Source: a virus. From it: a stretch of DNA of 64,000 bases. The stretch lies in IMG/VR virus record IMGVR_UViG_3300036826_000261, positions 8,693-72,692 of that record, one strand, 5' to 3'. Positions 2,839-57,081 of this stretch are shown piece by piece. Both the position numbers and the translations under genes were made by a program. Under the pieces are notes generated by a model. The model worked only from the letters and a program-made list of their open reading frames with translations, was not told where the DNA came from and searched no databases. Within the stretch, counting starts at the first letter, position 1. The number at the start of each line of letters is the position of its first letter.

Positions 2839-3908
2839 ATCGCCACGTGATCGAGCACACGGCGCCACCGGAGCGTGGTTTTCGACGCAATCCGCTGCCT
2901 GTCTCACAAGGCAACTGTTTTGTGCGCATGCTGACCGCCAAGGTGATTGGCCAGTTGCGCAACATGGCACCGATCTCGGTCGCCACCGGAATGTGGCCGA
3001 GCGACAGAATCACAGCCGAGATTTTGGAACGCGCATCGAGCGCGCCGGCCATGACGGGCGTAGCCGGTTGGGCTGCCGAGCTGACACAGCGGTTGGTCAG
3101 TGACGCGATCTCGATCATGAGTGGCGTATCGGCCGGCGCCGAAGTGCTGCGGCGCTGCTTGATGCTGGCGTTGGATCGCAACGGCTTTTTGGTGCCGGGT
3201 CTGGTGGTTGACGCTACCGGCGCTTCGTTTGTCGCTGAAGGTGATCCGATCCCGGTGCACAATCTTGCGACGACGCCAGGATCGATTCCGTTTACCAAGC
3301 TCGCCAGCATCGCGGTTTTGACAAGAGAAATGGTTGAATCGAGCAACGCCGAAGCGCTGATCGGCAACGCGCTGGGACGTGCAGCCGGTTTGGCGCTCGA
3401 TGCCGTGCTGTTTTCCAGCGCCGCCGCGACATCAGCAGCGCCGGCTGGCTTGCGCAACGGCATTGGTGCTTTGACGGCAAGCGTCAACACCGATCCGTTC
3501 GCAGCGGTGTTCGAGGACATGGCAACGCTGTTCAACGCGGTCGGTCAAGTCGGCGGTGCCGGCCCGTTTGTTCTGGTTGCGGGTCCCGGCCGCGCGATAA
3601 CCTTTTCCATGCGGGTCGGCGGTGGCGCACAGTTATCGGTTTATCCGGTGGCGTCCAGCTTCGTCGGCAATGACCTGATCGCGATTGCACCACAGGCGAT
3701 CGCGGCTGCGCTCGGCACGGAGCCGGTCATCGAGGCAGCAAAGGCCGGTGTTTTGCATATGGACACGGCGCCATCGGCGTCGCCTTCGGCCGGCGCGCGA
3801 AAAGAGATGTATCAAACCGATTCGATTGCAGTGAAAATGCACTGGCCAGTATCTTGGCTTTTGCGCGATGCGCGCGGCGTGGCGTGGCTGACGCCGGCCT
3901 GGAAGTGA
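2835..3908 (+). CDS. HK97-fold major-capsid-like paralog
   Basis: Aligns by eye with the capsid part of 10168-12456 (APAMTGVAGWAAEL vs APAMTTVAGWAQEL; FVAEGDPIPV vs FVGEGMAIPV; YQTDSIAVKM vs FQTDSLALRM). Confidence 0.85.
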   Translation: MNRHVIEHTAPPERGFRRNPLPVSQGNCFVRMLTAKVIGQLRNMAPISVATGMWPSDRITAEILERASSAPAMTGVAGWAAELTQRLVSDAISIMSGVSAGAEVLRRCLMLALDRNGFLVPGLVVDATGASFVAEGDPIPVHNLATTPGSIPFTKLASIAVLTREMVESSNAEALIGNALGRAAGLALDAVLFSSAAATSAAPAGLRNGIGALTASVNTDPFAAVFEDMATLFNAVGQVGGAGPFVLVAGPGRAITFSMRVGGGAQLSVYPVASSFVGNDLIAIAPQAIAAALGTEPVIEAAKAGVLHMDTAPSASPSAGARKEMYQTDSIAVKMHWPVSWLLRDARGVAWLTPAWK

Positions 3909-3913
3909 TCACC

Positions 3914-5107
3914 ATGAAGCATTTCGCGCAGTTCGAGCCGCCATCGCTGCCGCCGGTGGTCGTGGTCGAGCACACGCCGAAAGGCTGGCGCGGTCTGACG
4001 GCGGACGGTCAGGTGCTCAACGTGGAATCCGCCAACGGGCATCCGGTCGAGATTCCATTCGGCGGCAATCTCGCGGTGACACGCGCGGGTCAGATCATCG
4101 GCTATCGCGATATTCCGGAGCAACCGACGCCTGGGCTGATCGACAGCTACACGCGCTGCTATGATTTGGCGCTGCGCGCCGTGAGAGCCGGCAGGCTCGA
4201 CATGGCACTGACCCACGTCGAGACCGCGATATCGTTCGTGCCGACGCTAACCGCGCGCTACAACCGCGGCATGATCCTGCTCGAACTCGGACGCTGGCGC
4301 GAAGGCTTCGACGACTACGCGTACGCGATGGAGTACGACACGTCGCCGTACATGCGTCCGGAGTATCGCACGTGCCTCGAATGGGGATTGAAGCGCTGGC
4401 GCGGCGAGGACCTTCGCGGCAAGCGCATTCTGCTGGTGCACGATCACGGGTTCGGCGATTCGATCATGATGCTGCGCTATGTGCGCGTGCTTCAGGCGAT
4501 GGGCTCCAACGTCACGTTGTGGTTGCCGCCGGAGCTGCAACGGCTGGCGGCGCCGCTGGCGAAGGTCACCGGCGAGATCGTGCACGCGGATTATTTCTGT
4601 TCGCTGCTGTTCCTGCTGCACACGCTGCAGCAGACACCGGCGACGATTCCACTGCAGCCGTATCTGTCGGTCGATACGAAATTGCGCGGCAAGTGGCAGG
4701 ATCGGGTTGGGCACAAAAAGCCGATCGGCGTGGCGTGGACGCCGGGCCGGACGCACGATGGCGACTACCCGCGCGCCGTTCCGCTCGAATTGTTGCGCAA
4801 GGCGTTGCCTGACGCCGCGCTGGTCAGCGTGCAGCAGCAGGGCGCTGAAGAAGCGCAGGCGTTCGGTGTCGAGCACTACACGTTCGAGGATTTCGCCGAC
4901 TGTGCGGGACTGATGGCATGTTGCGATCGGATCATCACCGTAGACACCGCCGCCGTCCACCTCGCGGGCGCTGTCGGTCATTCGCGGATTTCGCTGTTGC
5001 TTGGTCATTGGGCAAGCTGGCGCTGGTTGTCGCCGTTGTACGAGAACGTTTGCATTTATAGGCAGGCGCCGCCGGGTGATTGGAGCGGCGTGCTGAAATT
5101 GCTTTGA
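3914..5107 (+). CDS. TPR-containing glycosyltransferase (GT-B, GT9-like C-terminus)
   Basis: TPR-like YNRGMILLELGRWREGF, then W.GEDL.GKRILL..DHGFGD.IM..RY and IITVDTAAVHLAGA motifs. Confidence 0.8.
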   Translation: MKHFAQFEPPSLPPVVVVEHTPKGWRGLTADGQVLNVESANGHPVEIPFGGNLAVTRAGQIIGYRDIPEQPTPGLIDSYTRCYDLALRAVRAGRLDMALTHVETAISFVPTLTARYNRGMILLELGRWREGFDDYAYAMEYDTSPYMRPEYRTCLEWGLKRWRGEDLRGKRILLVHDHGFGDSIMMLRYVRVLQAMGSNVTLWLPPELQRLAAPLAKVTGEIVHADYFCSLLFLLHTLQQTPATIPLQPYLSVDTKLRGKWQDRVGHKKPIGVAWTPGRTHDGDYPRAVPLELLRKALPDAALVSVQQQGAEEAQAFGVEHYTFEDFADCAGLMACCDRIITVDTAAVHLAGAVGHSRISLLLGHWASWRWLSPLYENVCIYRQAPPGDWSGVLKLL

Positions 5108-5224: not shown

Positions 5225-5773
5225 TTGATGAGGACGTGCGGTTTGATCTGGTATCAAAACAGGTTCGAGGTGCTGCGCCACGCGGCGGCGATAACACCCA
5301 CTGAAGGTCTGGTGCTTGAGTTCGGCGTGGCTTCAGGAAGCACTGTTCGTTGCTTAGCCGAAACACCAGCATTGTGCGAGCGATCCATCTACGGGTTCGA
5401 TTCGTTCAAGGGTTTGCCAGAACCATGGGCGTCGTATCCGGTCGGACATTTCGCTTGCGACATTCCAGAGGTGCCAAAAAATGTCGGGCTCGTGGTGGGG
5501 ATGTTCGAACATACGATCAAGCCGTTTTTGCTGGTTCATCCGAACAACGTTGCGCTGCTTCATATTGATTGCGATCTCTACTCCAGCGCTCGGTGTGTAC
5601 TTGAGCAGCTCTCACCCCGAATCGTCTCCGGTACTGTTATCGTGCTAGACGAGTATTTCATTCTTGTTGAGCACGAGCAGCGGGCTTTCAACGAGTGGCT
5701 GTCGAAGACGGGCCGCAGGTTTCGCAAGGAAGCGCGATCTGTCGAACAGTTGTGCGGCGTGATCGAAAGCTAG
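5225..5773 (+). CDS. class I SAM-dependent methyltransferase (TylF/MycF-like)
   Basis: LEFGVASG, GFDSFKGLPE, LHIDCDLYSS and VLDEY motifs. Confidence 0.85.
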   Translation: MMRTCGLIWYQNRFEVLRHAAAITPTEGLVLEFGVASGSTVRCLAETPALCERSIYGFDSFKGLPEPWASYPVGHFACDIPEVPKNVGLVVGMFEHTIKPFLLVHPNNVALLHIDCDLYSSARCVLEQLSPRIVSGTVIVLDEYFILVEHEQRAFNEWLSKTGRRFRKEARSVEQLCGVIES

Positions 5774-8222: not shown

Positions 8223-9808
8223 GCGAAGACAGGCTCGGCGCTCGCATCACGGAAGAGACCGACGACACGGAATGGCTCACGCCGGTCGGGCAGAAGTTTG
8301 ATCCGAACGAACCGCGTGATGAGCAGGGTCGCTGGACCGATGGCGGCGGCAGTGATGACGCCGGGTCGAGCAAGCCGGTCGGCGGTGGCGGCAAGGAAGG
8401 CGGTCAAGGCAAGAAAAAGGTCGAGAAGCTCGCCGATTTCCAGAAGGACGGCGTGCGTATCGATGCCAGTACGGCGGCCGACGACGCCAAGGCGCAAAAA
8501 TTTCTAGAGCGCTGGAATGATAAGATCGGCGAGGCGCCGGCCGAGTTCAAGCAGGAATTTCTCGGTGGCCTCAACGGCACGATGAAAGTTGGTTACGACG
8601 AACGCGAAGACCGAATCGATATCGACGGCCAGATCAAGGACGACAACGGCAGCACGATCGCGGATTATACGCGTTATGTTTTTCCTGGCCAGAACCGGGC
8701 CTATTCCGCTTACTTTGAAGTCAAACGCGCAGCGCAGCACGGAAAAGGTGGCCAGAACATCGGCAAGACGCTGCTTAAAGCCAACGTCGAGATGTATCAG
8801 AAGCTCGGTCTCGACAAGGTTACGGTGTCGGCCAATCTCGATGTCGGCGGCTACGCCTGGGCGAAATACGGCTACGTGCCGACGCGCAGTTCATGGGATT
8901 CATTGCGCGGCGCGATCGCCGACAAGCTGAACGACAACGGTGATCGCGCCAGCCATCGCGCGTCAGGTTCGGGTTATACGCCAGAAGAGTGGGATGCGAT
9001 CGGTAACGACGATCAAAGCCGGATCGAGCGGGCATGGATGGAGTCGGTGCGCGACGAGTTCGTTCAATCCGAAGAGCAGAACTACCGCGAGAGCGGGCAG
9101 GCGATGGAAGATGCCAAGCGCCAGCTCGCCGACAATTTCGATCCAACCGACAAATGGGCCGTGGCCGCGCTCAAGACGTGGCGCGAAGGGCTCGACGACG
9201 AAGGCAAGAGCATTCCCTACACCAACGAGGAATTGCTTAACGCGGTGACGATAGACGATTACTCGTCGCGCTATGGCGAGGGTCGTGACGATCCTGACAT
9301 CGAGATCGACGACAAGCAGCTTCCTGATTTGCAGCCTGGACAGGGGACGCTGCCCGGCATCGAGGTAGCGCCTGCGCTTAGCGATGACACACGCGACAAA
9401 ATCGTTAGTGTGCTTACTGAGGCGTTCAACGAACAGGCTGAAACCGACGCCGACAACGCTGATTATACGCCGGATGATCACTACATTCGCGAGTCCATGG
9501 GCGAGTACTGGGATTCGATGAGCGATCGCGACAAGTACGCCTGGGCCGAACGCAACAGCGAGTTGCCGGAATATCCGCTCGATGACGACGAGGATGTCGA
9601 GCCGGTCGAAGTAGCGGATGACACACAGCGCAGTGCGCTGTTGAAATTGACCGATAGCAATAATCCGAAGGCGCTGTGGGCGATCGCCGATTCACCGGCG
9701 GGCAAGGATTTGCTGCTCAATACCACTTGGTCCGGTGTGCTTGATCTCAAGGACAAGGACACCATGGATCGTTTCAACGCCTACGTCGGCAAAAAGAAGG
9801 CCGCTTGA
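8219..9808 (+). CDS. polyvalent protein with FDPNEPRDEQGRWT motif and GNAT-like acetyltransferase domain
   Basis: Q..G..IGKTLLKANVEMYQKLGLDKVTVSANLDVGGYAWAKYGY; long acidic insertion. Confidence 0.7.
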   Translation: MSEDRLGARITEETDDTEWLTPVGQKFDPNEPRDEQGRWTDGGGSDDAGSSKPVGGGGKEGGQGKKKVEKLADFQKDGVRIDASTAADDAKAQKFLERWNDKIGEAPAEFKQEFLGGLNGTMKVGYDEREDRIDIDGQIKDDNGSTIADYTRYVFPGQNRAYSAYFEVKRAAQHGKGGQNIGKTLLKANVEMYQKLGLDKVTVSANLDVGGYAWAKYGYVPTRSSWDSLRGAIADKLNDNGDRASHRASGSGYTPEEWDAIGNDDQSRIERAWMESVRDEFVQSEEQNYRESGQAMEDAKRQLADNFDPTDKWAVAALKTWREGLDDEGKSIPYTNEELLNAVTIDDYSSRYGEGRDDPDIEIDDKQLPDLQPGQGTLPGIEVAPALSDDTRDKIVSVLTEAFNEQAETDADNADYTPDDHYIRESMGEYWDSMSDRDKYAWAERNSELPEYPLDDDEDVEPVEVADDTQRSALLKLTDSNNPKALWAIADSPAGKDLLLNTTWSGVLDLKDKDTMDRFNAYVGKKKAA

Positions 9809-15189: not shown

Positions 15190-16936
15190 TGCGTGGCGCA
15201 AGATTCTCGGCGAAACGCTGGCGGAAGAGCGCGCCAATTGGCAGCGCAGTCGCGAATTGTCGGAAGCGCGATCCGCGCAGATCATCGCCGAGCTGAAGAC
15301 GCAATCGATGCAGCTCGTCACCGAGCTGGCGACGCGCACGTTCGAGTTGGAGCGCAAGCTTGAAGCATTGGTGCATCAGAAGTTGTCCGATGCCGAAGTC
15401 ATGATAAAAGATCGCTTGTCCAACTTGCGCGATGGTGCGCCCGGCGAGAAGGGTGAGCGCGGCGAGCGCGGCGAGAAAGGTGATCCGGGTGGCATCGGGT
15501 TAACAGGGCCGCAAGGCTATGCCGGTGAACGCGGCGAAAAGGGTGAACGCGGTGCTGTAGGTGCGCCCGGGCCGCAAGGATCGCAGGGCGAGCGCGGCGA
15601 GAAGGGCGAGCGCGGTGACGTTGGTACTGTCGGGGAGACGGGCGAAAAAGGTGATCGGGGCGAGCGGGGCGAACCAGGAGAAAGAGGCGAACATGGCGAA
15701 AAAGGCGAGCAAGGCGAAAAAGGCGAGCAAGGCGAAAAGGGCGAGCGCGGCGAACAAGGACCGCGCGGTGAAGCGGGTACGCCCGGGCGGCAAGGCGAAA
15801 AAGGCGAAAAAGGCGAAGCGGGCGAGGACGGCAGCGACGGACTGACCATCATCGGACCCGAAGGCCCGTGCGGGCCTTCCGGTCCGCGTGGTGAGCGCGG
15901 CGAGACCGGGCGGGAAGGTCTGCGCGGTCAGCCGGGCGCAATGGGTCCGGTCGGCGGGCAAGGCCCGCGCGGCGAACCGGGCGAGCCCGGTGCACCGGGT
16001 GCGGATGGCCCGGCAGGTCCGGCAGGCTCGGTCGGTCCAAGCGGACCACCGGGCGAGTCCGGCGCACCGGGCGATATCGGCCCGATGGGTCTGCGCGGAC
16101 CTATGGGCGAGCGCGGTGAGCGCGGTGAGCGCGGCGCCAAGGGCGATCCCGGCGATATCGTGATCGGTCCGCAAGGGCCTGCAGGCGAACGTGGTGAGCG
16201 CGGCGCACCGGGCGCGCATGGTCCGACAGGTCCGGTCGGTCCACGCGGTGAACAGGGCAAGCCGGGGCGTGACGGAGTTGACGGAGTACGCGGCGCACCG
16301 GGCGCGCATGGTCCGACAGGTCCGGCTGGTCCGCGCGGCGAGCCGGGTCTACCTGGGCGTGACGGAGCTGACGGAGCGCGCGGCGCCGATGGCGCACGTG
16401 GCGCCGACGGCGCGCCGGGGCGTTTGCCGCCGGTCAAGCAGTGGCAAGCCGACGTCGTGTATTATGCCGGCGACGTGGTGAGCCACGAGCGCGGATCGTA
16501 TCAGGCGCTGAAAGACACCAGCCGGCAGCCGGGCCGTAATCACGATTGGATTTGCATCGCCAGCGGCGGCGTCGATGCACGGTCGCCGCATGTGCGCGGC
16601 ACCTATGATCCAACGGCCAGCTATCAGGCGCTCGACATCGTTGTCAGCAACGGCGGCAGTTTCATCGCCAGGAAAGACGATCCGGGCGAGCTGCCGGGCG
16701 ACGGCTGGCAATTGATGGCGCGGCAAGGCCAGCGCGGCGTTGCCGGCGAGAAGGGCGAACGCGGCGAGCCCGGCGCACCGGGAGCGAAAGGCGAGCCCGG
16801 CGAGGTGGTGTTCAAGGGCTGGACCCATGACTGGAAAAACTTCGTTGCCGTGCCGCTGATGGCCGATGGCAAGCGTGGTCCGACCTTGGAGCTGCGCGGT
16901 TACTTCGAGCAATTCCAGAAAGACACCGATGGCTGA
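15110..16936 (+). CDS. collagen-like (Gly-X-Y) fibre protein with N-terminal coiled coil and C-terminal CBM-like repeats
   Basis: About 100 Gly-X-Y triplets (about 15434-16420); W...VVYYAGDVVSH and Y.ALDIVV.NGGSFIA. Confidence 0.85.
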   Translation: MTMQPQSNGKADEFLLPPPESTDILLDAWRKILGETLAEERANWQRSRELSEARSAQIIAELKTQSMQLVTELATRTFELERKLEALVHQKLSDAEVMIKDRLSNLRDGAPGEKGERGERGEKGDPGGIGLTGPQGYAGERGEKGERGAVGAPGPQGSQGERGEKGERGDVGTVGETGEKGDRGERGEPGERGEHGEKGEQGEKGEQGEKGERGEQGPRGEAGTPGRQGEKGEKGEAGEDGSDGLTIIGPEGPCGPSGPRGERGETGREGLRGQPGAMGPVGGQGPRGEPGEPGAPGADGPAGPAGSVGPSGPPGESGAPGDIGPMGLRGPMGERGERGERGAKGDPGDIVIGPQGPAGERGERGAPGAHGPTGPVGPRGEQGKPGRDGVDGVRGAPGAHGPTGPAGPRGEPGLPGRDGADGARGADGARGADGAPGRLPPVKQWQADVVYYAGDVVSHERGSYQALKDTSRQPGRNHDWICIASGGVDARSPHVRGTYDPTASYQALDIVVSNGGSFIARKDDPGELPGDGWQLMARQGQRGVAGEKGERGEPGAPGAKGEPGEVVFKGWTHDWKNFVAVPLMADGKRGPTLELRGYFEQFQKDTDG

Positions 16937-41812: not shown

Positions 41813-42619
41813 ATGAAGTACAACTCGCCATGGAACGATCCGGACACCAACGATCCTTATGTCAACGGCCAGCCGGCGCAGGGCGTCGAAGGCAGCGTGA
41901 TTCCGGCCGAATCGATCGAGTACCCGCAGCGCGAGATCGTCAACACCATCGCGCAGAACGGTTTCTTTCCGACCAACAGCGACACCAATCAGCTCGGTCG
42001 CGCGGTGCAGCTCGATCTGTGCAACTTCGGGGTCGATTACGGCATCGCCAACGAAATGGCCGTGACGCTCGATCCGACGCCGCTCAACTATCATGTCGGT
42101 CTGAAGATTTTCATTCTGGTCGCGCAGGCGAACTCCGGCGCGACCGTGCTCAATGTTAACGGGCTCGGCGCGGTGCCGGTGCGGCATCCTGATTTGACCG
42201 AGCTGTCGCCGGGTGACGTGATCCCCGGCGGCATCGCGCTGGTCTATCACGACGGCACGCAATTCCAGCTCTTGTTCGGCGCCAAGTCGGCGGCGGGGCC
42301 GGCAGGACCGCAAGGCGCCACCGGACCGGCAGGAGCGACCGGCGCGACCGGCGCCACCGGCGCGACCGGCGCCAAGGGCGACAAGGGCGCGACCGGGCCG
42401 CAAGGCCCGTCAGGCGCACCGGCTTCGCTGATCGTCGGGCTCGGCGGCATCGGCTCGTATTTGTTCAACATCACCTATCTGGGCGTCTACGACGATTCGA
42501 GCCTGACCTACGCGATCAATCAACTGGGCTACGGCGGCACCTGGGCGCAGCACGGCATCGTGCAGCAAGGCTGGTTCTCCGGCGCGCTGGCCGAGTTCTT
42601 AGGCCAGAGGATCGCGTGA
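41813..42619 (+). CDS. tail fibre protein 1 (short collagen segment)
   Basis: YVNG.P..G..GS.IPA..IE.PQREIVN.I; N.GAT.LNVNGLG; GPQGATG repeats. Confidence 0.8.
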
Positions 42620-43449
42620 TGCAGTACAATCCGCCGTGGGACGCCTTCGAGGCGGGACTGTTCGACGCGCCTTATGTCAACGGCGACGAGCACAAGGGCA
42701 TCGCCGGCAGCATCATTCCGCCGCAGGCGATCGAGCTGCCACAGCGCGAGATCGTCAACTTCATCACGCAGAACGACATCAGCCCGTCCAATGCCGATCT
42801 CACGCAGCTCGGTCGCGCGCTGCAGCTCGATCTGTGCAACTACGCGGTTGACACCGGCGTGCCGAACGCGCTTGCCGTGACGATCGATCCGACGCCGAAA
42901 ACTTATCAGGCCGGTCTGAAGCTGTTCATTCTGGTCAACTACGCCAACACCGGCGCCACGACATTGGTGATCAACGGCATCTCGCCGGTGCATCCGGTGC
43001 CGGTGCGGCATCCCGGCGGCGTGGTCGAGCTGGCGCCGAACGATCTGTTACCGAACGCCATTGCGCTGGTCTATTACGACGGCACGGTGTTTCAACTGCT
43101 GTTCTCGGCGCGGCCGACCGCAGGACCAGCCGGCGCGATCGGTGCGCAAGGTCCGCAAGGCGCCACTGGCGCCACCGGCGCCACCGGGGCGAAAGGCGTC
43201 AGAGGCGACACCGGTGCCGCCGGGCCGCCCGGTCCGGCGGGCAGTTCAGCCGGACTGATCGTCGGCTATGGCGGCGTCGGCAGTCTGGGCTTCTTCAACA
43301 CTTACTATTCGATCTATGACGCCACGTCCTTGAACTACGCGCTCAACGCGCTGCTGGGCGTCGGCGGCACGTGGTCGGATCGCGGCACCGTGACGCAAGG
43401 CTGGTACTCCGGCGCGTTGACCGAGTTCATGGCGCAGAGGATCGCATGA
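42619..43449 (+). CDS. tail fibre protein 2, tandem paralog of 41813-42619
   Basis: Colinear similarity along the whole length (PQREIVN, QLGRA.QLDLCN, QGW.SGAL.EF..QRIA). Confidence 0.8.
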   Translation: MQYNPPWDAFEAGLFDAPYVNGDEHKGIAGSIIPPQAIELPQREIVNFITQNDISPSNADLTQLGRALQLDLCNYAVDTGVPNALAVTIDPTPKTYQAGLKLFILVNYANTGATTLVINGISPVHPVPVRHPGGVVELAPNDLLPNAIALVYYDGTVFQLLFSARPTAGPAGAIGAQGPQGATGATGATGAKGVRGDTGAAGPPGPAGSSAGLIVGYGGVGSLGFFNTYYSIYDATSLNYALNALLGVGGTWSDRGTVTQGWYSGALTEFMAQRIA

Positions 43450-43787
43450 TCAACACCACGCGCACCATCGTCTCGGCTGTCAATCCGGTCCGCTATCAGG
43501 ATGATTTCGCGGTGTGGCTGAAGGTCTGGTTCGAAGAGTTGAGCGAACCAGTGCTGTTCTGCGCGATCCCGTTCGATGTCGAAGTGCACGGCCGCGAGCT
43601 GTGGATCAGGGCGATGGCCGGCGAATACGGCCCGGTCGATGTGCGGCCGAAGCCTGACATGCCGGTCGGCCGGTTCAAGATCACGCGGCTGCCGGGACCG
43701 CGACTGATCCAGATGATCGAGAGCAAGCAGTTCTGTTGCGAGCCGCTGGCCGATGACGATACCAACGGGCCGATCAAATGGCGATGA
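43446..43787 (+). CDS. tail fibre assembly-like protein
   Basis: V.F.A.P.D.E.HGRELW.RA.AGEYGPV. Confidence 0.65.
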   Translation: MINTTRTIVSAVNPVRYQDDFAVWLKVWFEELSEPVLFCAIPFDVEVHGRELWIRAMAGEYGPVDVRPKPDMPVGRFKITRLPGPRLIQMIESKQFCCEPLADDDTNGPIKWR

Positions 43788-44149
43788 CGCTTGATCTAAC
43801 CACCTATACCGATTCCGATCTGGTCGAGAGCTTCATCTATCAGCTCGTGGACGGCACGCCGATCGATCTGACCGGCTACTCGTTGCGCATGCACGTGCGC
43901 AAGCACGCGGAAGACGCTACCGCGCTGTTCGAGTGCTCGACCTTCAACGGACTGATCTGGTGGAATGATATCGTGGGCGGCGCGTTCACCCTGCAGATAC
44001 CCGTCGCGATCCTGGTATCGCTGTCGCCCGGCACCTACACGCAATCGCTGATCGCCACGCAGCCGGTGTCGCTGCTGCGGCGTGATTTGTGGCGCGGCTC
44101 GTTGATCCACGCCGCCGGTCCGACACGTTGGGATTTGGGCACGCTATGA
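43778..44149 (+). CDS. BppU-N-like adaptor
   Basis: [16 protein letters not shown]. Confidence 0.6.
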
Positions 44150-45432
44150 CCAGAAAAATTATCGGCGAACAACACCCCAACGTGCGGGCGGGCACCAGTC
44201 CGCCGCATCCTGCGCAAACCGATTCGACCGTGCCGGTCACCGACGTGGTGCAGATCGGTCCGCCGGGGCCGCCCGGCCCGAACGGTCCGCCGGGACCGCC
44301 CGGCCCGACTGGCGCGGTCGGGCAGACCGGTCCGCAGGGGCCGCAAGGCCCGCAGGGACCGCAAGGCCCGCAGGGCTCGCAAGGCCCGCAGGGACCATCC
44401 GGGCCGCCCGGCGGCCTCGGCGAAGCGCCGAGCGACAGCACGTCCTACGGCCGCAGAAACGCGGCGTGGTCGTCGGTCACCGAAGAGGCGCCGAACGACG
44501 GCCAGACCTACGGTCGCAAGAACAAGGCATGGGTGGTCGGCGGCGGCGGTGGCGCCACGGTCACCGCGTCGGATACGCCGCCGGGCTCGCCGAGCGCCGG
44601 CAGCCTGTGGTTCAACACAACCAACGGCCAGCTCTACATCTATTTCAACGACGGCACATCGTCGCAATGGGTGTTCGCGTCGGGTGGCGTGCAGAATCAA
44701 CCGCAGGTGCCGCGCGGCGCGCTCGGCGGGTTGACGCTGTCCACGGCGGGCAGTTCGGCGACGTTCACGGTGCAGCCCGGACGCGCTGCGGATTCCACCG
44801 CTGCATTGCTGATGAACCTCGCATCGGCGATGAACAAGACCACCAGCGCATGGGCGGCGGGCAGCGGCAACGGCGCGCTCGACACCGGCGCGATCAGCGC
44901 GGCGGCTTGGTACCATGTCTTTTTGATCATGAACCCGACGTCGGGCGCGGTCGATATCCTGATCTCGCTGTCGGCGACGGCACCGACCATGCCGTCCGGC
45001 TACACGCTGTTCCGGCGCATCGGCTCGATGCTGACCGCGTCGTCGCTGTGGGTGAAATTTTCGCAGCGCGGCGACGAATTTTTGTGGGATGCGCCGGTCG
45101 TCAACGCCAGCGCAGTCGCGTTCACCGTGACTGCGACATTGCTGGCGCTGGGTGTGCCGCCGGGGATTCAGGTCAACGCGTTCGGGCAGGTGCGCGCCGA
45201 CTACGCCACCAACGCGGCGACTTTCACGCTGTCATCGCCGGACATCACGGCGCCGGTGGTCGGCAGCGCCACGTCATCGTTGGTGGTCTCGGGTACTTCC
45301 ACCAACTCGGTCAGTTACTTCAACATCCGCACCAACACCGCGCAGCAAATCCGTTATCAGGCCAACGGCACCGGTCCGACCTTCAGCCTGGGCACGTTCG
45401 GCTGGATCGATCGTCGCGGCAAGGACGATTAG
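44146..45432 (+). CDS. collagen-containing fibre protein
   Basis: GPQ repeats, EAP.DG..YGRKN.AW, P...GSLWFNT..GQLYIY. Confidence 0.75.
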
Positions 45433-52486: not shown

Positions 52487-52528
52487 CGTCGCCGTAAACA
52501 ACCGTTTCAACCTTCCTCCCTAGACTTG

Positions 52529-52565
52529 AGCCGGGTGGCCCTCCAAGCGCCCGGCTTTCTTTTTT
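52529..52565 (+). terminator. intrinsic terminator ending the late operon
   Basis: AGCCGGG/CCCGGCT stem + TTCTTTTTT. Confidence 0.75.
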
Positions 52566-52670
52566 GCCTGCACGATGTTTTTGCCGGCGAAAAATTTTCT
52601 TGACTTTTCGCCAAACCCGTCGCTCGCTTCCCGGATTCGTAAAATCAAAATGCTAAAGGGAGAGAAGCAA

Positions 52671-53549
52671 ATGGCGAAAAAGGCACCCGTCAGTGAAATC
52701 ATCGAAATCCAAGCTATCGAAATGGCGTCGCTGGATTTCCATGTGGTCGGCACCAGCCCGTTCATCATGCATCGCTTCAGTCAGAAGGCGTGGCAGGAAT
52801 TGCTGCTGCCGTCGATCCGCGAAAACCGCGCTAGTCTCGAACAGAAGCTCAAGCATGATCCGTATGCAGAATTTCGTGGCGCGTTCTATCGCAACAGCAA
52901 TCCGCGCGCCAAGACGGCGTACCATATTCCAAACGGCGCGTTTCACGGCGCGATCGCCAGCGCCGCGCTCGACATGCCGGGTGCCAAGAAGGCGCAGATC
53001 GAGCGGTTGACCAAGATCACCAGCGTCAACATCGAACTGTATGGCATCCCGAAAATCTTTTGCAGCATGGTGCGTAACAGCGACATCTCGCGCACGCCAG
53101 ATGTGCGCACCCGGCCGATCTTCCCGCGCTGGGCGTGCACGGTTTCGGTGCGCTACGCGAAGAACGCGTTGACGGCCAAAGCCGTCGCCAATCTGTTCGG
53201 CGCGGCGGGCGAGATCATCGGCATCGGTGATTGGCGCGGTCAGAAGGGCGGACCGTTCGGCGCGTTCCGCACCAACGTGTCGGTGAACGATAAAGAGTTC
53301 AAGAGCATCTTGAAGGAAGGCCGCGTCGCGCAATTGAAAGCTTACGACAAACCGTTGTTCTACGATGAAGACACGGAAGAAATTTTAACGTGGTTCGCCA
53401 CCGAGGTGCGCCGCCGTGAGTTGGAAGGCAAGATGCGCAGCGATAACGTCAAGGAGTTTCGCGTTATCACCGAGCGCGGCAAGGAGCGCGGCAACGGCGA
53501 GTTGGTGAGCCTTGACGACAAGCGGCGGACCCGTCGAAAGGCCGCGTGA
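52671..53549 (+). CDS. stand-alone Cas7/RAMP-like RNA-binding protein (Vipr-like effector)
   Basis: VVGTSPFIMH first strand, IP..AF..AI..A, R.RP.FP.W, and C-terminal Gly-rich loop GIGDWR..KGGPFGAF typical of RAMP-fold proteins; no other cas genes in the window. Confidence 0.75.
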   Translation: MAKKAPVSEIIEIQAIEMASLDFHVVGTSPFIMHRFSQKAWQELLLPSIRENRASLEQKLKHDPYAEFRGAFYRNSNPRAKTAYHIPNGAFHGAIASAALDMPGAKKAQIERLTKITSVNIELYGIPKIFCSMVRNSDISRTPDVRTRPIFPRWACTVSVRYAKNALTAKAVANLFGAAGEIIGIGDWRGQKGGPFGAFRTNVSVNDKEFKSILKEGRVAQLKAYDKPLFYDEDTEEILTWFATEVRRRELEGKMRSDNVKEFRVITERGKERGNGELVSLDDKRRTRRKAA

Positions 53550-54043
53550 TGGCGAAAGCCACCAAACACGACCGCATCAAAGCGGCGTTGGAAGCGATCA
53601 GGCGCTCGCATCGCGGGCGCTTGACGGCGCGGGCCGTGGTCGAGGCGGCCAAAAATCCTAGGCACCCGTTGCACAGTGAATTTGAATGGAACAACCAGAA
53701 AGCAGCGGATCAGCAACGCTTGGAGCGTGCGCGCGAACTAATCAGATACGTCACGGTCGTGGTCGTTGATGCAACGCGTAAAGTCGAAACACGATTTTAT
53801 GCGCACGATCCGCGAACGCCGCATCGTGAAGGCTATGTCAGCATCTTGGAGATGAACCGCCGCGATGCTGAACAAGATGTGGTCAACGCTATCGCGATCT
53901 GTCAATCGACGATCGATCGCGCGCTCAGCAAAGCGGAATTTCTCAGCGCGAAGCATCGTGGTGTTTCACGATTGTTGAAAAATGCAGTTGCTACCCTTGC
54001 CGCCGCGCATGATCTGCTCGAAGGCTCGGCGGCAGCGGCGTGA
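53549..54043 (+). CDS. accessory protein coupled to the RAMP-like gene
   Basis: LT..AVVEAA..P.HPLH..FEW....AA...RL..AR.LIR motif; start overlaps the RAMP stop. Confidence 0.7.
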   Translation: MAKATKHDRIKAALEAIRRSHRGRLTARAVVEAAKNPRHPLHSEFEWNNQKAADQQRLERARELIRYVTVVVVDATRKVETRFYAHDPRTPHREGYVSILEMNRRDAEQDVVNAIAICQSTIDRALSKAEFLSAKHRGVSRLLKNAVATLAAAHDLLEGSAAAA

Positions 54044-54048
54044 AGTCA

Positions 54049-54269
54049 TAGGCATGGCAGGCTAGGCAAGGTGCGGCCCGGCCGGAGTAGGTTCGGTGCG
54101 GCAAGGCAGGCATGGCCCGGGAGACGCGGTGAAGCGTGTCCGTGATCTGGTAGCGTCGGGTAAGGCGGCGTTGGATGGGGTGAGGCGAGGCAGGCTTGGT
54201 CAGGTCTGACGAGACTGGGCGCGGTAGGTTTTGGCGCGGTACGGCAAGGCGTGATGCGGTAAGGCAGGC
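54049..54269 (+). ncRNA. GGY-NN pentamer array, block 1 (3 units)
   Basis: Starts TAGGCATGGCA; GGCA separators at 54056, 54105, 54189, 54263 (spacings 49/84/74 = 5n+4). Confidence 0.85.
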
Positions 54270-54527
54270 ATGGCCAGAAACACAGCGGATAAGGTTCTCG
54301 AAAACAAGTTGCGGCTGATCGCCAAACGGCGGGGTTTGTTTCTTTCGAAATCCCGTCGTCGCGATCCGTTTGCGCTCGACTTTGGTTATGAGTTGAGAGA
54401 CGCGCAACAGCACGTCATCGAAACAGCGTGCAGTCTTACTCGAATCGAAAACTTGTTAGCTCTCGGTCGGACGGGGCGGAAACGTTTAACAGTCGAAGGA
54501 TGGCGTCACATCATCCTTGGTAAGTAG
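54270..54527 (+). CDS. small basic protein embedded in the array
   Basis: ENKLRLIAKRRGL.L.KSRRRDP.ALDFGY; non-repetitive, lower-GC insert. Confidence 0.65.
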   Translation: MARNTADKVLENKLRLIAKRRGLFLSKSRRRDPFALDFGYELRDAQQHVIETACSLTRIENLLALGRTGRKRLTVEGWRHIILGK

Positions 54528-56488
54528 GCATGGCAGGCGTGGCCGGGCCGGGTTGTCCCCGGTGTGGCAGAGCATGGCAGCGCAGGGTTGACATGGCAGG
54601 GCAGGCAGGGTCCGTCGTGGTCGCGCGGGATTGGGCGGGGCAAGGCACGGCACGATGCTGGTCTGGCGAGGCGTGGCAGGCATGGCTGGATCAGGCGTGA
54701 CGAAGCTTGGTGTAGCTAGGCCGGGTGCAGTGTAGGCATGGCGAGGCAGGCGCGGCGGGACAAGGTCCGATATGGCGTGGCGCGGTCTGGTTCGGTCTGG
54801 CCGGGTTTGGCAGGCAAGGTGCGTCGAGGCCAAACATGGTGTGACAAGGTACGGCGCGGCCTGATCTGGGCTCGACTGGGCAGGCGCGGTGGGTTCTGGC
54901 TCGACATGGTTAGGCGAGGCCCGGTGATGCCCGGCATGTTGAAGTGCGTCCTGGCAGGCGTGGCGGGGGTGCGTGCGAGGCGGGACCGGGCAAGGTCGGG
55001 CACGTTATATGGTCTGGCTGGGCACGGCTTGGCGGGTCACGGCAAGGCACGGCCGGCAAGGTTTGTCCGGAACCGGTTTGGCTTGGCGAGATGCGATTAG
55101 GCGAGGCGAAGCGAGGCCGGCTAAGCGTGACTTGGTCGGGTAGACGTGGCCGGGCACGGTAGCGGCGTGGATCGGCCGGCGACGCTAGGCTTGTCGTCGA
55201 TCGGCATGACATGGCGCGGCACGGCGAGGCGTGGTTCGGCCGGCGCGATTAGGTGTGGTCGGAATCGGCATGGCTCGGTGTCGCGTGGTCTGGCGTGGCT
55301 CGGCTGGGCCGGCTGGCGGGATTTGGCTTGATGCGGTCAGGCAAGGTCCGGCCCGGATCGGCGCGGCATGGCCGGCGTGGTCTGGCTTGAAGTGGTTGGG
55401 ATTAGGCGTGGCGCGGTATGACGCGGTGAGGCAGGCGGGGAGTGGCTAGACGTGGCTGCGCGCAACAAGGTCGGTCAAGTCCTGGTTTAGGCGTGGTGTG
55501 ACGCTGTGAGGCAGGCAAGGCCCGGACGGGCAAGACCGGATTAGGCATGGCGATGCTGGGCCGGCGGGGCACGGTGGAGGCCCGGACGGGCACGGCCGGG
55601 CAAGGCGTGGCAATGCAAGGCAGGCAAGACTTGGCAGGGCGCGGCCCGGCGAGAAATGGTTTGGCGCGGCGCGGCAGGCATGGCAGGGCGATACATGGTC
55701 AGGCGAAGCACGGCACAGCAGGGCAGGCGGGACTGGGTGTTCTGGGCACGGCTGGGCACGGCCGAAGCATGGCCGGCGAGGCTTGTCCTGGCACGGCGGG
55801 GCTGAGGCGTGGCAGCGTTTAGGCGCGGCCGGCGAGGCTTGTCCTGATTCGGCGGGGCTCGGCTTAGGCGCGGCCGGGTCGGTCACGGCAAGGCAGGCAC
55901 GGCTAGGCGTGGCAGGGAGCGGCAACGCCGGGTCGGGCGTGGCTGGGCTAGGCGACGGCGAGGCGAGGCGTGGTGCGGCAGGCGCGGCATGACAAGGCGC
56001 TGTGAGACCCGGCTTGGCAGGGTGCGGTACGGCATGGCTCGGCAGCGCTAGGCTTGGCAGGCACAGGTGATGCGGCGCGCGACAAGGCGGGACAGGGCGA
56101 GGCCGGCGCGGCATGAAAAGGCGCGGCGCGTTCGGGTGCAGCGCGGCGGGGTTGCGGCAAGGCACGGCTCGGCAGGACCGGCGGGGCTGGGCGTGTCTGG
56201 GCACGGCTCGGCGCGGCACGGCACGGTCCGGCAACGCCGGCAGCGCTGGGCGAGACATGGCATGGCTTGGCGGGGCTGGACACGGTGAGGCGAGGCAGGC
56301 GCGATCTGGCGTGGTTTGGCGTGGCGGGGCGAGGTACGAGCTGGGCGAGGCGAGGCAGGCGTGGTCGGGCGCAACGCGATGTGGTGTGACTGGTCGCGGC
56401 TCGCTGCGGTACGGCCCGGCAGGCGGGACTGGGCGTTGCTGGATCAGGTTCGGCCCGGCATGGCTAGGCGTGGCAGGCGGCGCAGGCG
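54525..56488 (+). ncRNA. GGY-NN pentamer array, block 2 (about 30 units)
   Basis: Continuous 5-nt periodicity of GG(C/T)NN with GGCA/GGCC tetramer separators about every 45-85 nt; only low-complexity spurious ORFs. Confidence 0.9.
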
Positions 56489-56522
56489 CTGATTATCCGT
56501 TAGAAAAAAGGAATCCCAACTG

Positions 56523-56846
56523 ATGGACGACAAGGATTTCGTACGTTTTGTCGAGCTGGCCGAGCAGGAGCTTGTTGCGCGCGGCCAGATCATCGAAGCT
56601 GGTTTTTCCGGCTTCAAGCTCATCTTCGAGCAGAACTGGTCGCCCGAAACCGAACGGCTGAGCCGCATCGCGTTCTATGCCGGCGCACAGCATCTGTACG
56701 TGACCCTGATGCGGATCATGGATCAGGGCATCGAACCGACCGAGGCTGACATGGCGCGGATGGCGCGGGTGCACGATGAGCTTGCGCGCTTCGAAGAAAC
56801 CATTTTGCAACCGGCAGCGAAGAAGTACAGAGAACGCAGAAACTGA
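56523..56846 (+). CDS. hypothetical protein
   Basis: AAGGA RBS; R.AFYAGA.HL motif. Confidence 0.65.
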   Translation: MDDKDFVRFVELAEQELVARGQIIEAGFSGFKLIFEQNWSPETERLSRIAFYAGAQHLYVTLMRIMDQGIEPTEADMARMARVHDELARFEETILQPAAKKYRERRN

Positions 56847-56883
56847 TCACACTCATGCCATCCAGACTTCGACGATCTTGGGG

Positions 56884-57081
56884 TCATGAAACGCGGTCGT
56901 CAACATCGGCGCCTCTCACGGATGTCGCGCAAGCGATCAGCGCGCAGCCGAGATGTTCGGCCTGCTGCGGTGTCAGCCACACGGTGTCGCTCGGCAGATC
57001 GATATACACATAGCCCTCGCCGTTGTCACAGCACGTGACAGAAGCTTCGGGATCGCAGTAGCTGGCGCGTTCGCGCGTCAT
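56884..57081 (-). CDS. hypothetical protein
   Basis: V.LTP.QA..LG.ALI pattern. Confidence 0.5.
   Translation of the reverse strand: MTRERASYCDPEASVTCCDNGEGYVYIDLPSDTVWLTPQQAEHLGCALIACATSVRGADVDDRVS

Follow-up and report, generated by a model that had tools for sequence, protein, structure and literature searches.

A putative VIPR guide array in a Bradyrhizobium-related phage, with near-matches on small integrative elements

A 64,000-nucleotide stretch of viral DNA, positions 8,693 to 72,692 of IMG/VR record IMGVR_UViG_3300036826_000261 (hereafter the window), carries a non-coding, G-rich tract of 2.45 kb at window positions 54044-56490 on the + strand. We propose that this tract is the guide array of a VIPR (Viral Interference Programmable Repeat) system in a Bradyrhizobium-related, contractile-tailed phage, and that some of its guides are aimed at small integrative elements. 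We put the probability of this reading at roughly 0.72. By homology, the locus at 52575-56490 is a VIPR system: one of the two genes directly before the tract is clearly homologous to the SUSP1 Vipr protein, whose structure is solved. The locus has three parts:

52575..53549, + strand: vipr gene, 324 amino acids (aa), encoding a minimal RAMP/Cas7-like protein, a Vipr homologue
53546..54043, + strand: vap-like accessory gene, 165 aa, phrog_15946 (E=2.4e-14)
54044..56490, + strand: guide RNA (vrRNA) array of about 35 staggered NNGGY guides, with a period-5 signal and 33 junctions

VIPR was described in 2026 and has been studied in enterobacterial and Pseudomonas phages. The papers on it (10.64898/2026.04.26.720920, 10.64898/2026.04.26.720927 and 10.64898/2026.10.15.759431) describe Vipr as a minimal RAMP protein, which polymerises on vrRNAs composed of GGY/NN repeats. 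The NN dinucleotides pair with double-stranded DNA, each third base is skipped, and binding represses transcription. Most natural targets lie in coding DNA and place the skipped base at the wobble position; those known are satellites, prophage regulators and other VIPRs. Internal degeneracy of vrRNAs is frequent (10.64898/2026.04.26.720920).

The assignment rests on the vipr gene. A profile of its family (A1, phrog_4652; 50 sequences, with the window protein first) matches PDB chain 36pp_D, "SUSP1 Vipr protein", at E=2e-43, and the alignment pairs profile positions 20-213 (194 positions) with chain residues 1-189. The window protein matches phrog_4652 at E=7.6e-19, and a G-rich C-terminal motif, G.GD.RP...G.FG.F, is conserved. 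The AlphaFold2 (AF2) model of the window protein has a predicted local distance difference test score (pLDDT) of 79.6. The window Vipr should polymerise on the guide RNAs. The start of the accessory gene overlaps the vipr stop. The AF2 model of this phrog_15946 protein has a pLDDT of 90.5, and a fold search with it returned weak winged-helix matches only, to PadR and to a regulator resembling MarR (E 0.07-0.2). Window positions 52500-52571 (+), in the gap that immediately precedes vipr, give the only Rfam match, a sub-threshold one to suhB/mmgR (RF00519), with 32.8 bits against a gathering score of 41 and E=6e-4.

The tract begins 1 nt past the stop of the accessory gene, and only short open reading frames (ORFs) cross it on either strand. 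It is built of degenerate NNGGY units with a strict 5-nt period; 265 of the 377 units (70%) conform, counted outside a 269-nt interruption. Autocorrelation at lags of 5, 10 and 15 nt is 0.35-0.48 at 54001-57000, whereas the remaining 1-kb blocks of the window all lie at 0.21-0.32, and the + strand has a G skew of about +0.3, with GG recurring each 5 nt. At the junctions between guides the step shortens to 4 nt and the sequence reads GGC[A/C]GGC. There are 33 of these, 23 with GGCAGGC and 10 with GGCCGGC. Cutting at the junctions gives 33 pieces, and one of them holds two degenerate junctions, so the array contains about 35 guides of 9-19 units each. Pieces with no internal irregular step are 49, 54, 64, 69, 74 or 79 nt long, always 5n-1. 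Every guide begins with C[A/C]GGC, and its C is common with the last unit of the preceding guide. Irregular steps of 4 or 6 nt occur inside 18 of 31 guides. Similarity between guides is not above that of shuffled sequences; the guides are distinct and not recent duplicates. A repeat search together with Tandem Repeats Finder found no long direct repeats in the tract, only periodic families of 5, 10 and 15 nt. An Rfam scan found no hammerhead or other family within the array, and a promoter scan turned up nothing informative.

The window array is not a CRISPR array. Class 1 CRISPR-Cas likewise places a RAMP-fold protein (the Cas7 backbone) on a guide RNA at a fixed step and draws on a programmable array, but its step is 6 nt with 5 read, whereas that of the window is 5 nt with 2 read, a gapped target code. 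No direct repeats of 23-55 nt are present at the locus. Among the neighbours scanned there is no cas-like gene besides the Vipr homologue, and there are no adaptation genes.

Tract and gene are coupled in other viral sequences as well. With a search pattern of eight perfect GGCNN units, at least 139 stretches were found in IMG/VR. Among the matches listed, the flanking ORFs cluster into two families, phrog_4652 and phrog_15946. In the same set of listed matches, phrog_4652 is recognised by its hidden Markov model in 61 of 74 loci of at least 2.5 kb (several of the 74 being pairs from one contig). With a single exception among the 61 it lies on the G-rich strand, and mostly 10-150 nt from the tract. 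Nineteen of the 74 also have phrog_15946, which never occurs there without phrog_4652. At 2.45 kb, the window array is the longest of the tracts measured; among the listed matches, the IMG/VR loci that were fetched reach about 1.65 kb at most.

An earlier, sequence-only reading of this DNA had held that five units of the tract spell protein motifs when each NN is taken as codon positions 1-2: a Walker A of primase/helicase type (54604-54674), the string AGLSIYEPDPIEAL (54883-54952), UvrD motif III (55514-55558), an AlpA/excisionase-like string (55896-55976) and a tentative vWA-like string (56298-56353). All five units lie at those positions, inside the 5-nt periodic array, and are VIPR guides. 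All five strings reproduce, and the decoding is the same as the published rule of skipping 1 nt. The guides that contain these units, together with a further guide discussed below, are as follows:

54602..54676, + strand: guide 6, the Walker A unit; forward decoding, one near-target
54881..54954, + strand: guide 10, the AGLSIYEPDPIEAL unit; forward decoding, two near-targets
55432..55511, + strand: guide 18, likewise on the AlpA site, 16/20 bases
55512..55560, + strand: guide 19, the UvrD motif III unit; reverse-complement decoding
55894..55978, + strand: guide 26, the AlpA unit; forward decoding, three near-target places
56296..56355, + strand: guide 30, the tentative vWA unit; decoding reproduced up to a register slip

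Units 54604-54674, 54883-54952, 55896-55976 and 56298-56353 decode forward, but 55514-55558 does so only as its reverse complement. Read forward, the guide 6 unit gives the NN series AG CC GT CG GG TG GG AA AC AC / CT CT GA GT; the reverse complement of the guide 19 unit gives CA TC AT TA CG TT CG GG TT. The guide 30 string decodes too, but its final T-L-E-E needs a register slip at a 6-nt step, and in strict register it ends T-L-R-R. One irregular 6-nt step is present in three of the five units. Each NN narrows the choice to one or two residues (for example AG = S/R, AA = K/N, GA = D/E, TG = C/W). The code being ambiguous, the residue that fitted had been picked each time, and the strings are one choice among several.

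We searched guides 6, 10 and 26 in genomes of Bradyrhizobium species, allowing up to 3 mismatches and running a reversed-pattern control alongside. Guide 10 matched in 2 of 401 genomes at 25 of its 28 specified bases, guide 26 at three places in 2 of 301 genomes at 27 of 30, and guide 6 in 1 of 301 genomes at 23 of 26; the control gave 0 matches for each. By our own arithmetic, with uniform base composition, the estimated number of chance matches is 0.01-0.1 per search. The near-matches of these three guides exceed chance. All of them lie in frame, the skipped bases fall on wobble positions, and 88-90% of the specified bases agree. For guides 6 and 26, the match stays in register across the guide's 6-nt step.

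The matches of guide 26 bear out the AlpA/excisionase interpretation. They lie in frame in AlpA/excisionase-like small ORFs of about 90-100 aa and read TY[VI]S[AP]NRR[LI]W[YF]ADEVA. Their PHROG matches are to phrog_66/phrog_2790, "excisionase and transcriptional regulator" (E 1e-7 to 1e-11), and their Pfam match, to Phage_AlpA at E=6.7e-4, is below the gathering score. Guide 18 falls on the same AlpA site, with 16 of 20 bases at position 5301 of target region L160, one codon upstream of the guide 26 site. Guide 6 does fall on a GKTT P-loop, where its match reads SPVPDCGKTTLLD in frame, but the target is a 492-aa DUF3631 protein (L164:9469-10947), at most a putative primase or helicase. The guide 10 matches read AGLS[RI][YF]EPDPI[AG]A[LI] and lie at the C-terminus of small ORFs. 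Relatives of this target occur in 18 of 251 genomes, with a best guide identity of 18-25 of 28 bases. No Pfam or PHROG family matches it, and Pfam gives none for most of its neighbours either. Guide 10 has a real target family. In genome G172, an AIPR/AbiU abortive-infection gene (L155 7948-9951; PADLOC AbiU, E=3e-120) stands tail to tail with the guide 10 target.

The core gene set of a phage satellite (P4-like or PICI-like) consists of an integrase, AlpA and a primase/replicase; virion structural genes are absent, and the element depends on a helper phage. In genome G192, the AlpA-like gene comes after Prim-Pol/PriCT_1 and VapE-like genes, and a DNA-invertase-like gene lies at the contig start. 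In G214, it adjoins a D5_N/DUF5906 primase-helicase in a 5.45 kb module that is present in two copies, 99.6% identical; no integrase was recognised in this module. The DUF3631 gene lies in G291, in an island of about 16 kb between guaA and host metabolic genes, with the order guaA / integrase, AlpA, DUF3631, AAA_24, Cas4-like, VapE, DUF5681, resolvase / host genes. The AlpA of this island has a Pfam match at E=3e-12, and the island also holds a weak VWA_CoxE match, a Cas4-like exonuclease and a VapE primase/helicase. Among the 35 ORFs scanned with Pfam, 8 of which were also compared with PHROGs, no capsid, tail or large-terminase family emerged; many of these ORFs had no match. tRNA genes were not found in the six target regions scanned.

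Use against satellites had been the broader claim of the sequence-only reading, and it is partly supported. The AlpA and P-loop guides do fall in integrase/AlpA/primase islands, but the check proposed there, whether several guided genes lie together in one element, came out negative in the roughly 120 kb of target DNA fetched. We ran all guide segments of at least 9 units over regions L155, L156, L160-L162 and L164. Only guides 18 and 26 share a site (AlpA), and no second guide fell on a second gene. The target islands may be satellites that exploit this phage.

The phage genome is about 72.7 kb long. It has a contractile tail, and genes for terminase, portal, major head, sheath and baseplate are present; two endolysin genes lie just upstream of the vipr locus. 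Proteins with 68-79% identity to the sheath protein occur in 11 genome loci, of which 6 are titled Bradyrhizobium and the others are alphaproteobacterial or proteobacterial metagenome genomes. By this similarity, the closest relatives of the phage are likely prophages in Bradyrhizobium, and Bradyrhizobium is the likely host. The tail-fibre genes of the phage contain period-9 (collagen-like Gly-X-Y) repeats, at window positions 15455-16804 and 42299-44396.

Several observations weigh against an array whose guides act on such elements. Each match of guides 6, 10 and 26 has 3 mismatches, and the matches come from 1-2 genomes per search. The exact patterns of guides 10 and 19 had 0 matches in IMG/VR, and an exact search with the opening 11 units of guide 26 found none in the species genomes and none in metagenomes of the Joint Genome Institute (JGI); these four exact scans found no perfect target. 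In the roughly 120 kb around the targets, only one site per element was matched at 75-78% or better. Thirty percent of the units depart from NNGGY, irregular steps interrupt 18 of 31 guides, and the array may be partly decayed. With the window protein as query, Vipr was not found in 5 genomes that carry related prophages, and the close relatives therefore give no comparative support. We regard the lack of a perfect target in the four exact scans and the degeneracy of the array as the main weaknesses.

An alternative that we consider unlikely, and still the best placed, is that the same VIPR array is a mixed library, directed at competing prophages, other VIPRs and defence genes of the host or of its elements (counter-defence), and not mainly at satellites. 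Guide 19 is one argument for it. As the sequence-only reading had it, this guide spells QSIYRFRG of UvrD motif III exactly, over 8 of its 9 units, but its matches are no more numerous than those of the control. At up to 2 mismatches it gave 45 matches, spread over 42 of 301 genomes, while the reversed control gave about 69 (hand count); an exact match of 8 units should turn up by chance somewhere in a pangenome. Nearly half of the matches (22 of 45, in 21 genomes) read QSIYRFRGA, with 8 of 9 units perfect and both mismatches in the ninth; nothing rests on the single one of these that comes from the unpublished genome G021. The 10 of the 22 that we examined are all in frame, in ORFs of 1120-1289 aa, and all four of these ORFs that were scanned carry Peptidase_M78, UvrD-helicase, UvrD_C and PDDEXK_1. 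The PADLOC models that fit them best are those of GajB or DRT-associated helicases. At codon positions 1-2, guide 19 equals QSIYRFRG of this accessory M78-UvrD-PDDEXK_1 protein, seen in 21 of 301 genomes. The flanks of its gene are common in 20 and 24 of 45 locus pairs, figures compatible with an island gene as well as with a core gene. The protein itself (L165-L174) combines an IrrE/ImmA-type M78 peptidase with a UvrD helicase and a PD-(D/E)XK nuclease.

A guide at the start of the array also bears on this alternative:

54058..54106, + strand: guide 1, near-match to the phage's own vipr

In the phage's own 72.7 kb genome, guide segments match at the level of shuffled sequences, guide 1 excepted. 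Guide 1 (54063-54104) matches window positions 52863-52888 (-) at 16 of 18 bases, and shuffled genomes reach at most 14. The near-match is to vipr codons 97-105 (YAEFRGAFY), on the antisense strand and with the skip bases on the wobble position. Guide 1 could serve self-regulation, or it could be a guide against the vipr genes of relatives. In the Bradyrhizobium genomes, at up to 1 mismatch, it had 0 matches in 301 genomes against 9 for the control, which tells against a mixed set of targets. The first segment of guide 29 (29a) matches at 16 of 18 bases at position 1821 (+) of L023/L024, a VIPR-bearing IMG/VR contig; among the matches listed, this is the only cross-match of at least 85% to other VIPR loci (139 IMG/VR loci, 348 kb). 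The AbiU/AIPR gene that adjoins the guide 10 target in G172 would suit counter-defence, and prophage regulators and other VIPRs are among the targets of the systems already published. Set against this, the two best-supported guides fall in integrase/AlpA/primase islands.

A wider proposal, possible though doubtful, is that about 35 guides form a library of wobble-blind codon strings taken from conserved motifs (the AlpA wing, the P-loop, helicase motif III and YAEFRGAFY of Vipr). Such a library would silence families of rival elements and the accessory M78-UvrD-nuclease gene of the host, a gene of defence type, and would tune or police vipr genes as well; VIPR would then act in counter-defence and self-regulation besides its use against satellites.

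Less probable still, and improbable on any count, is that the array is a largely decayed or fast-drifting relic, whose near-matches mark the origins of guides, or chance on conserved motifs, and not present silencing. The degeneracy described above would fit a relic: 30% of units fail to conform, irregular steps are many, no perfect target emerged from the four exact scans, and all matches have 3 mismatches. So would an orphan ORF inside the array:

54270..54527, + strand: orphan ORF of 85 aa interrupting the array, its ATG within the guide-start motif CAGGCATGGCC

This ORF breaks guide 4. It has no Pfam or PHROG match, and a search for protein homologues returned only the ORF itself. Decay on that scale, however, sits poorly with 2.45 kb of non-coding DNA retained beside intact vipr and vap-like genes, and with a junction motif kept 33 times. 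Three guides beat a control with zero matches, with alignment of both frame and wobble, and the matches of guides 6 and 26 hold their register across a 6-nt step. Internal degeneracy is, moreover, frequent in vrRNAs according to the preprint (10.64898/2026.04.26.720920). A terminator-like hairpin lies at 54319-54332, within the span of the orphan ORF.

It is scarcely credible that the tract is a structural or protein-binding repeat (an R-loop or G-quadruplex leader, an RNA sponge or a Chi-like array) and not a set of guides: the strong G skew (+0.3) and the GG every 5 nt would suit it, but a Vipr homologue is encoded beside the tract, 61 of 74 loci among the matches listed show this pairing of tract and gene, and the NN strings match coding DNA in frame, which such alternatives do not predict. 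An R-loop origin, a G-quadruplex leader, an RNA sponge, a TRAP-like array, a Chi-like array and a pentapeptide-repeat ORF had each been considered and were dropped once the neighbour matched Vipr.

If the tract is a VIPR guide array directed in part at integrative elements, its + strand would be transcribed either with the late/lysis operon or from a promoter of its own. Cleavage of the transcript at its GG/C[A/C]GGC junctions would release about 35 vrRNAs. As the VIPR papers describe it, Vipr protomers (here from 52575-53549) would bind one GGY each and form a filament that presents the NN dinucleotides. These would pair with double-stranded DNA, with the third base skipped, and a guide would therefore read codon positions 1-2 and ignore wobble changes. 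Binding would silence transcription, again following those papers. Some guides would be aimed at conserved codon strings in the AlpA/excisionase wing, the DUF3631 P-loop and the small protein of no family, and the phage would in this way hold down resident satellite-like or other competing elements. This supposes that matches of 88-90% are functional, standing in for perfect targets in unsampled strains, and that the target islands compete with or parasitise this phage.

The VIPR systems of SUSP1 and Pseudomonas fulva (type II; 10.64898/2026.04.26.720920) likewise have a Vipr homologue in a two-gene operon (vipr plus an accessory gene), same-strand guides of GGY/NN pentamers with 9-16 or more units, and coding targets with the skip on the wobble position, located on satellites or integrative elements. 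Unlike those, the window guides have no conserved structured 3' tail and abut via the 4-nt step GG-C[A/C]-GGC, and about 35 of them stand in one 2.45 kb array, whereas SUSP1 has four vrRNAs. The likely host clade of the window phage is Bradyrhizobium, and its accessory gene is phrog_15946, which may or may not be related to vap1. In the "staggered" VIPR arrays mentioned in the legend of fig. S18 of the preprint (10.64898/2026.04.26.720920), each vrRNA begins where the previous one ends, and the two overlap by 1 nt. The C common to neighbours at the 33 window junctions fits this form, as judged against that legend only.

A distant blastn search against phage records found a tract of the same kind in 19 Cheoctovirus mycobacteriophage records only (Saal, Donkeykong and 17 others). 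There, too, an NNGGC tract with GGCAGGC junctions occurs together with phrog_4652 and phrog_15946 genes, which follow it. The order in Cheoctovirus is array, vipr, vap-like, after the antirepressor in the early right arm, whereas in the window it is vipr, vap-like, array. The Cheoctovirus arrays, of 250-350 nt, are much shorter and cleaner than that of the window, and the host is actinobacterial. The module lies at 2992-4546 of our Donkeykong locus (L001, NC_051648) and at 3003-4458 of our Saal locus (L002, NC_023580). The Donkeykong array is annotated, probably wrongly, as coding sequence gp48, "hypothetical protein"; that of Saal carries no annotation. Nowhere does the main text of 10.64898/2026.04.26.720920 contain the word "Mycobacter". 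The staggered form is already mentioned in the preprint, and the clade, the Cheoctovirus loci or the accessory family may already be listed in the supplementary tables of the preprints.

The punctuation between guides varies in other IMG/VR arrays. It is GTTCA in L011 (1986-2351), where a sigma-70-like promoter immediately precedes the first unit of the array. On a 158 kb contig, L082 (700-2355, - strand) has a 1.65 kb array with a conserved inter-guide element of about 35 nt, ACGGGAGCAGCAGCATCCGGCG.AAAGGGATGGAC. L045 is a further array with other inter-guide punctuation.

These data would extend VIPR to a soil Bradyrhizobium myophage and offer concrete guide-target pairs: the AlpA wing, the DUF3631 P-loop and a small protein of no family. 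A register that continues across an irregular 6-nt unit, as seen with two guides, bears on how much irregularity the Vipr filament tolerates. If the matches to the helicase-nuclease gene and to vipr are real, VIPR would also serve counter-defence and self-control. And if the guides do form a library of conserved motifs, one array would silence whole families of rival elements.

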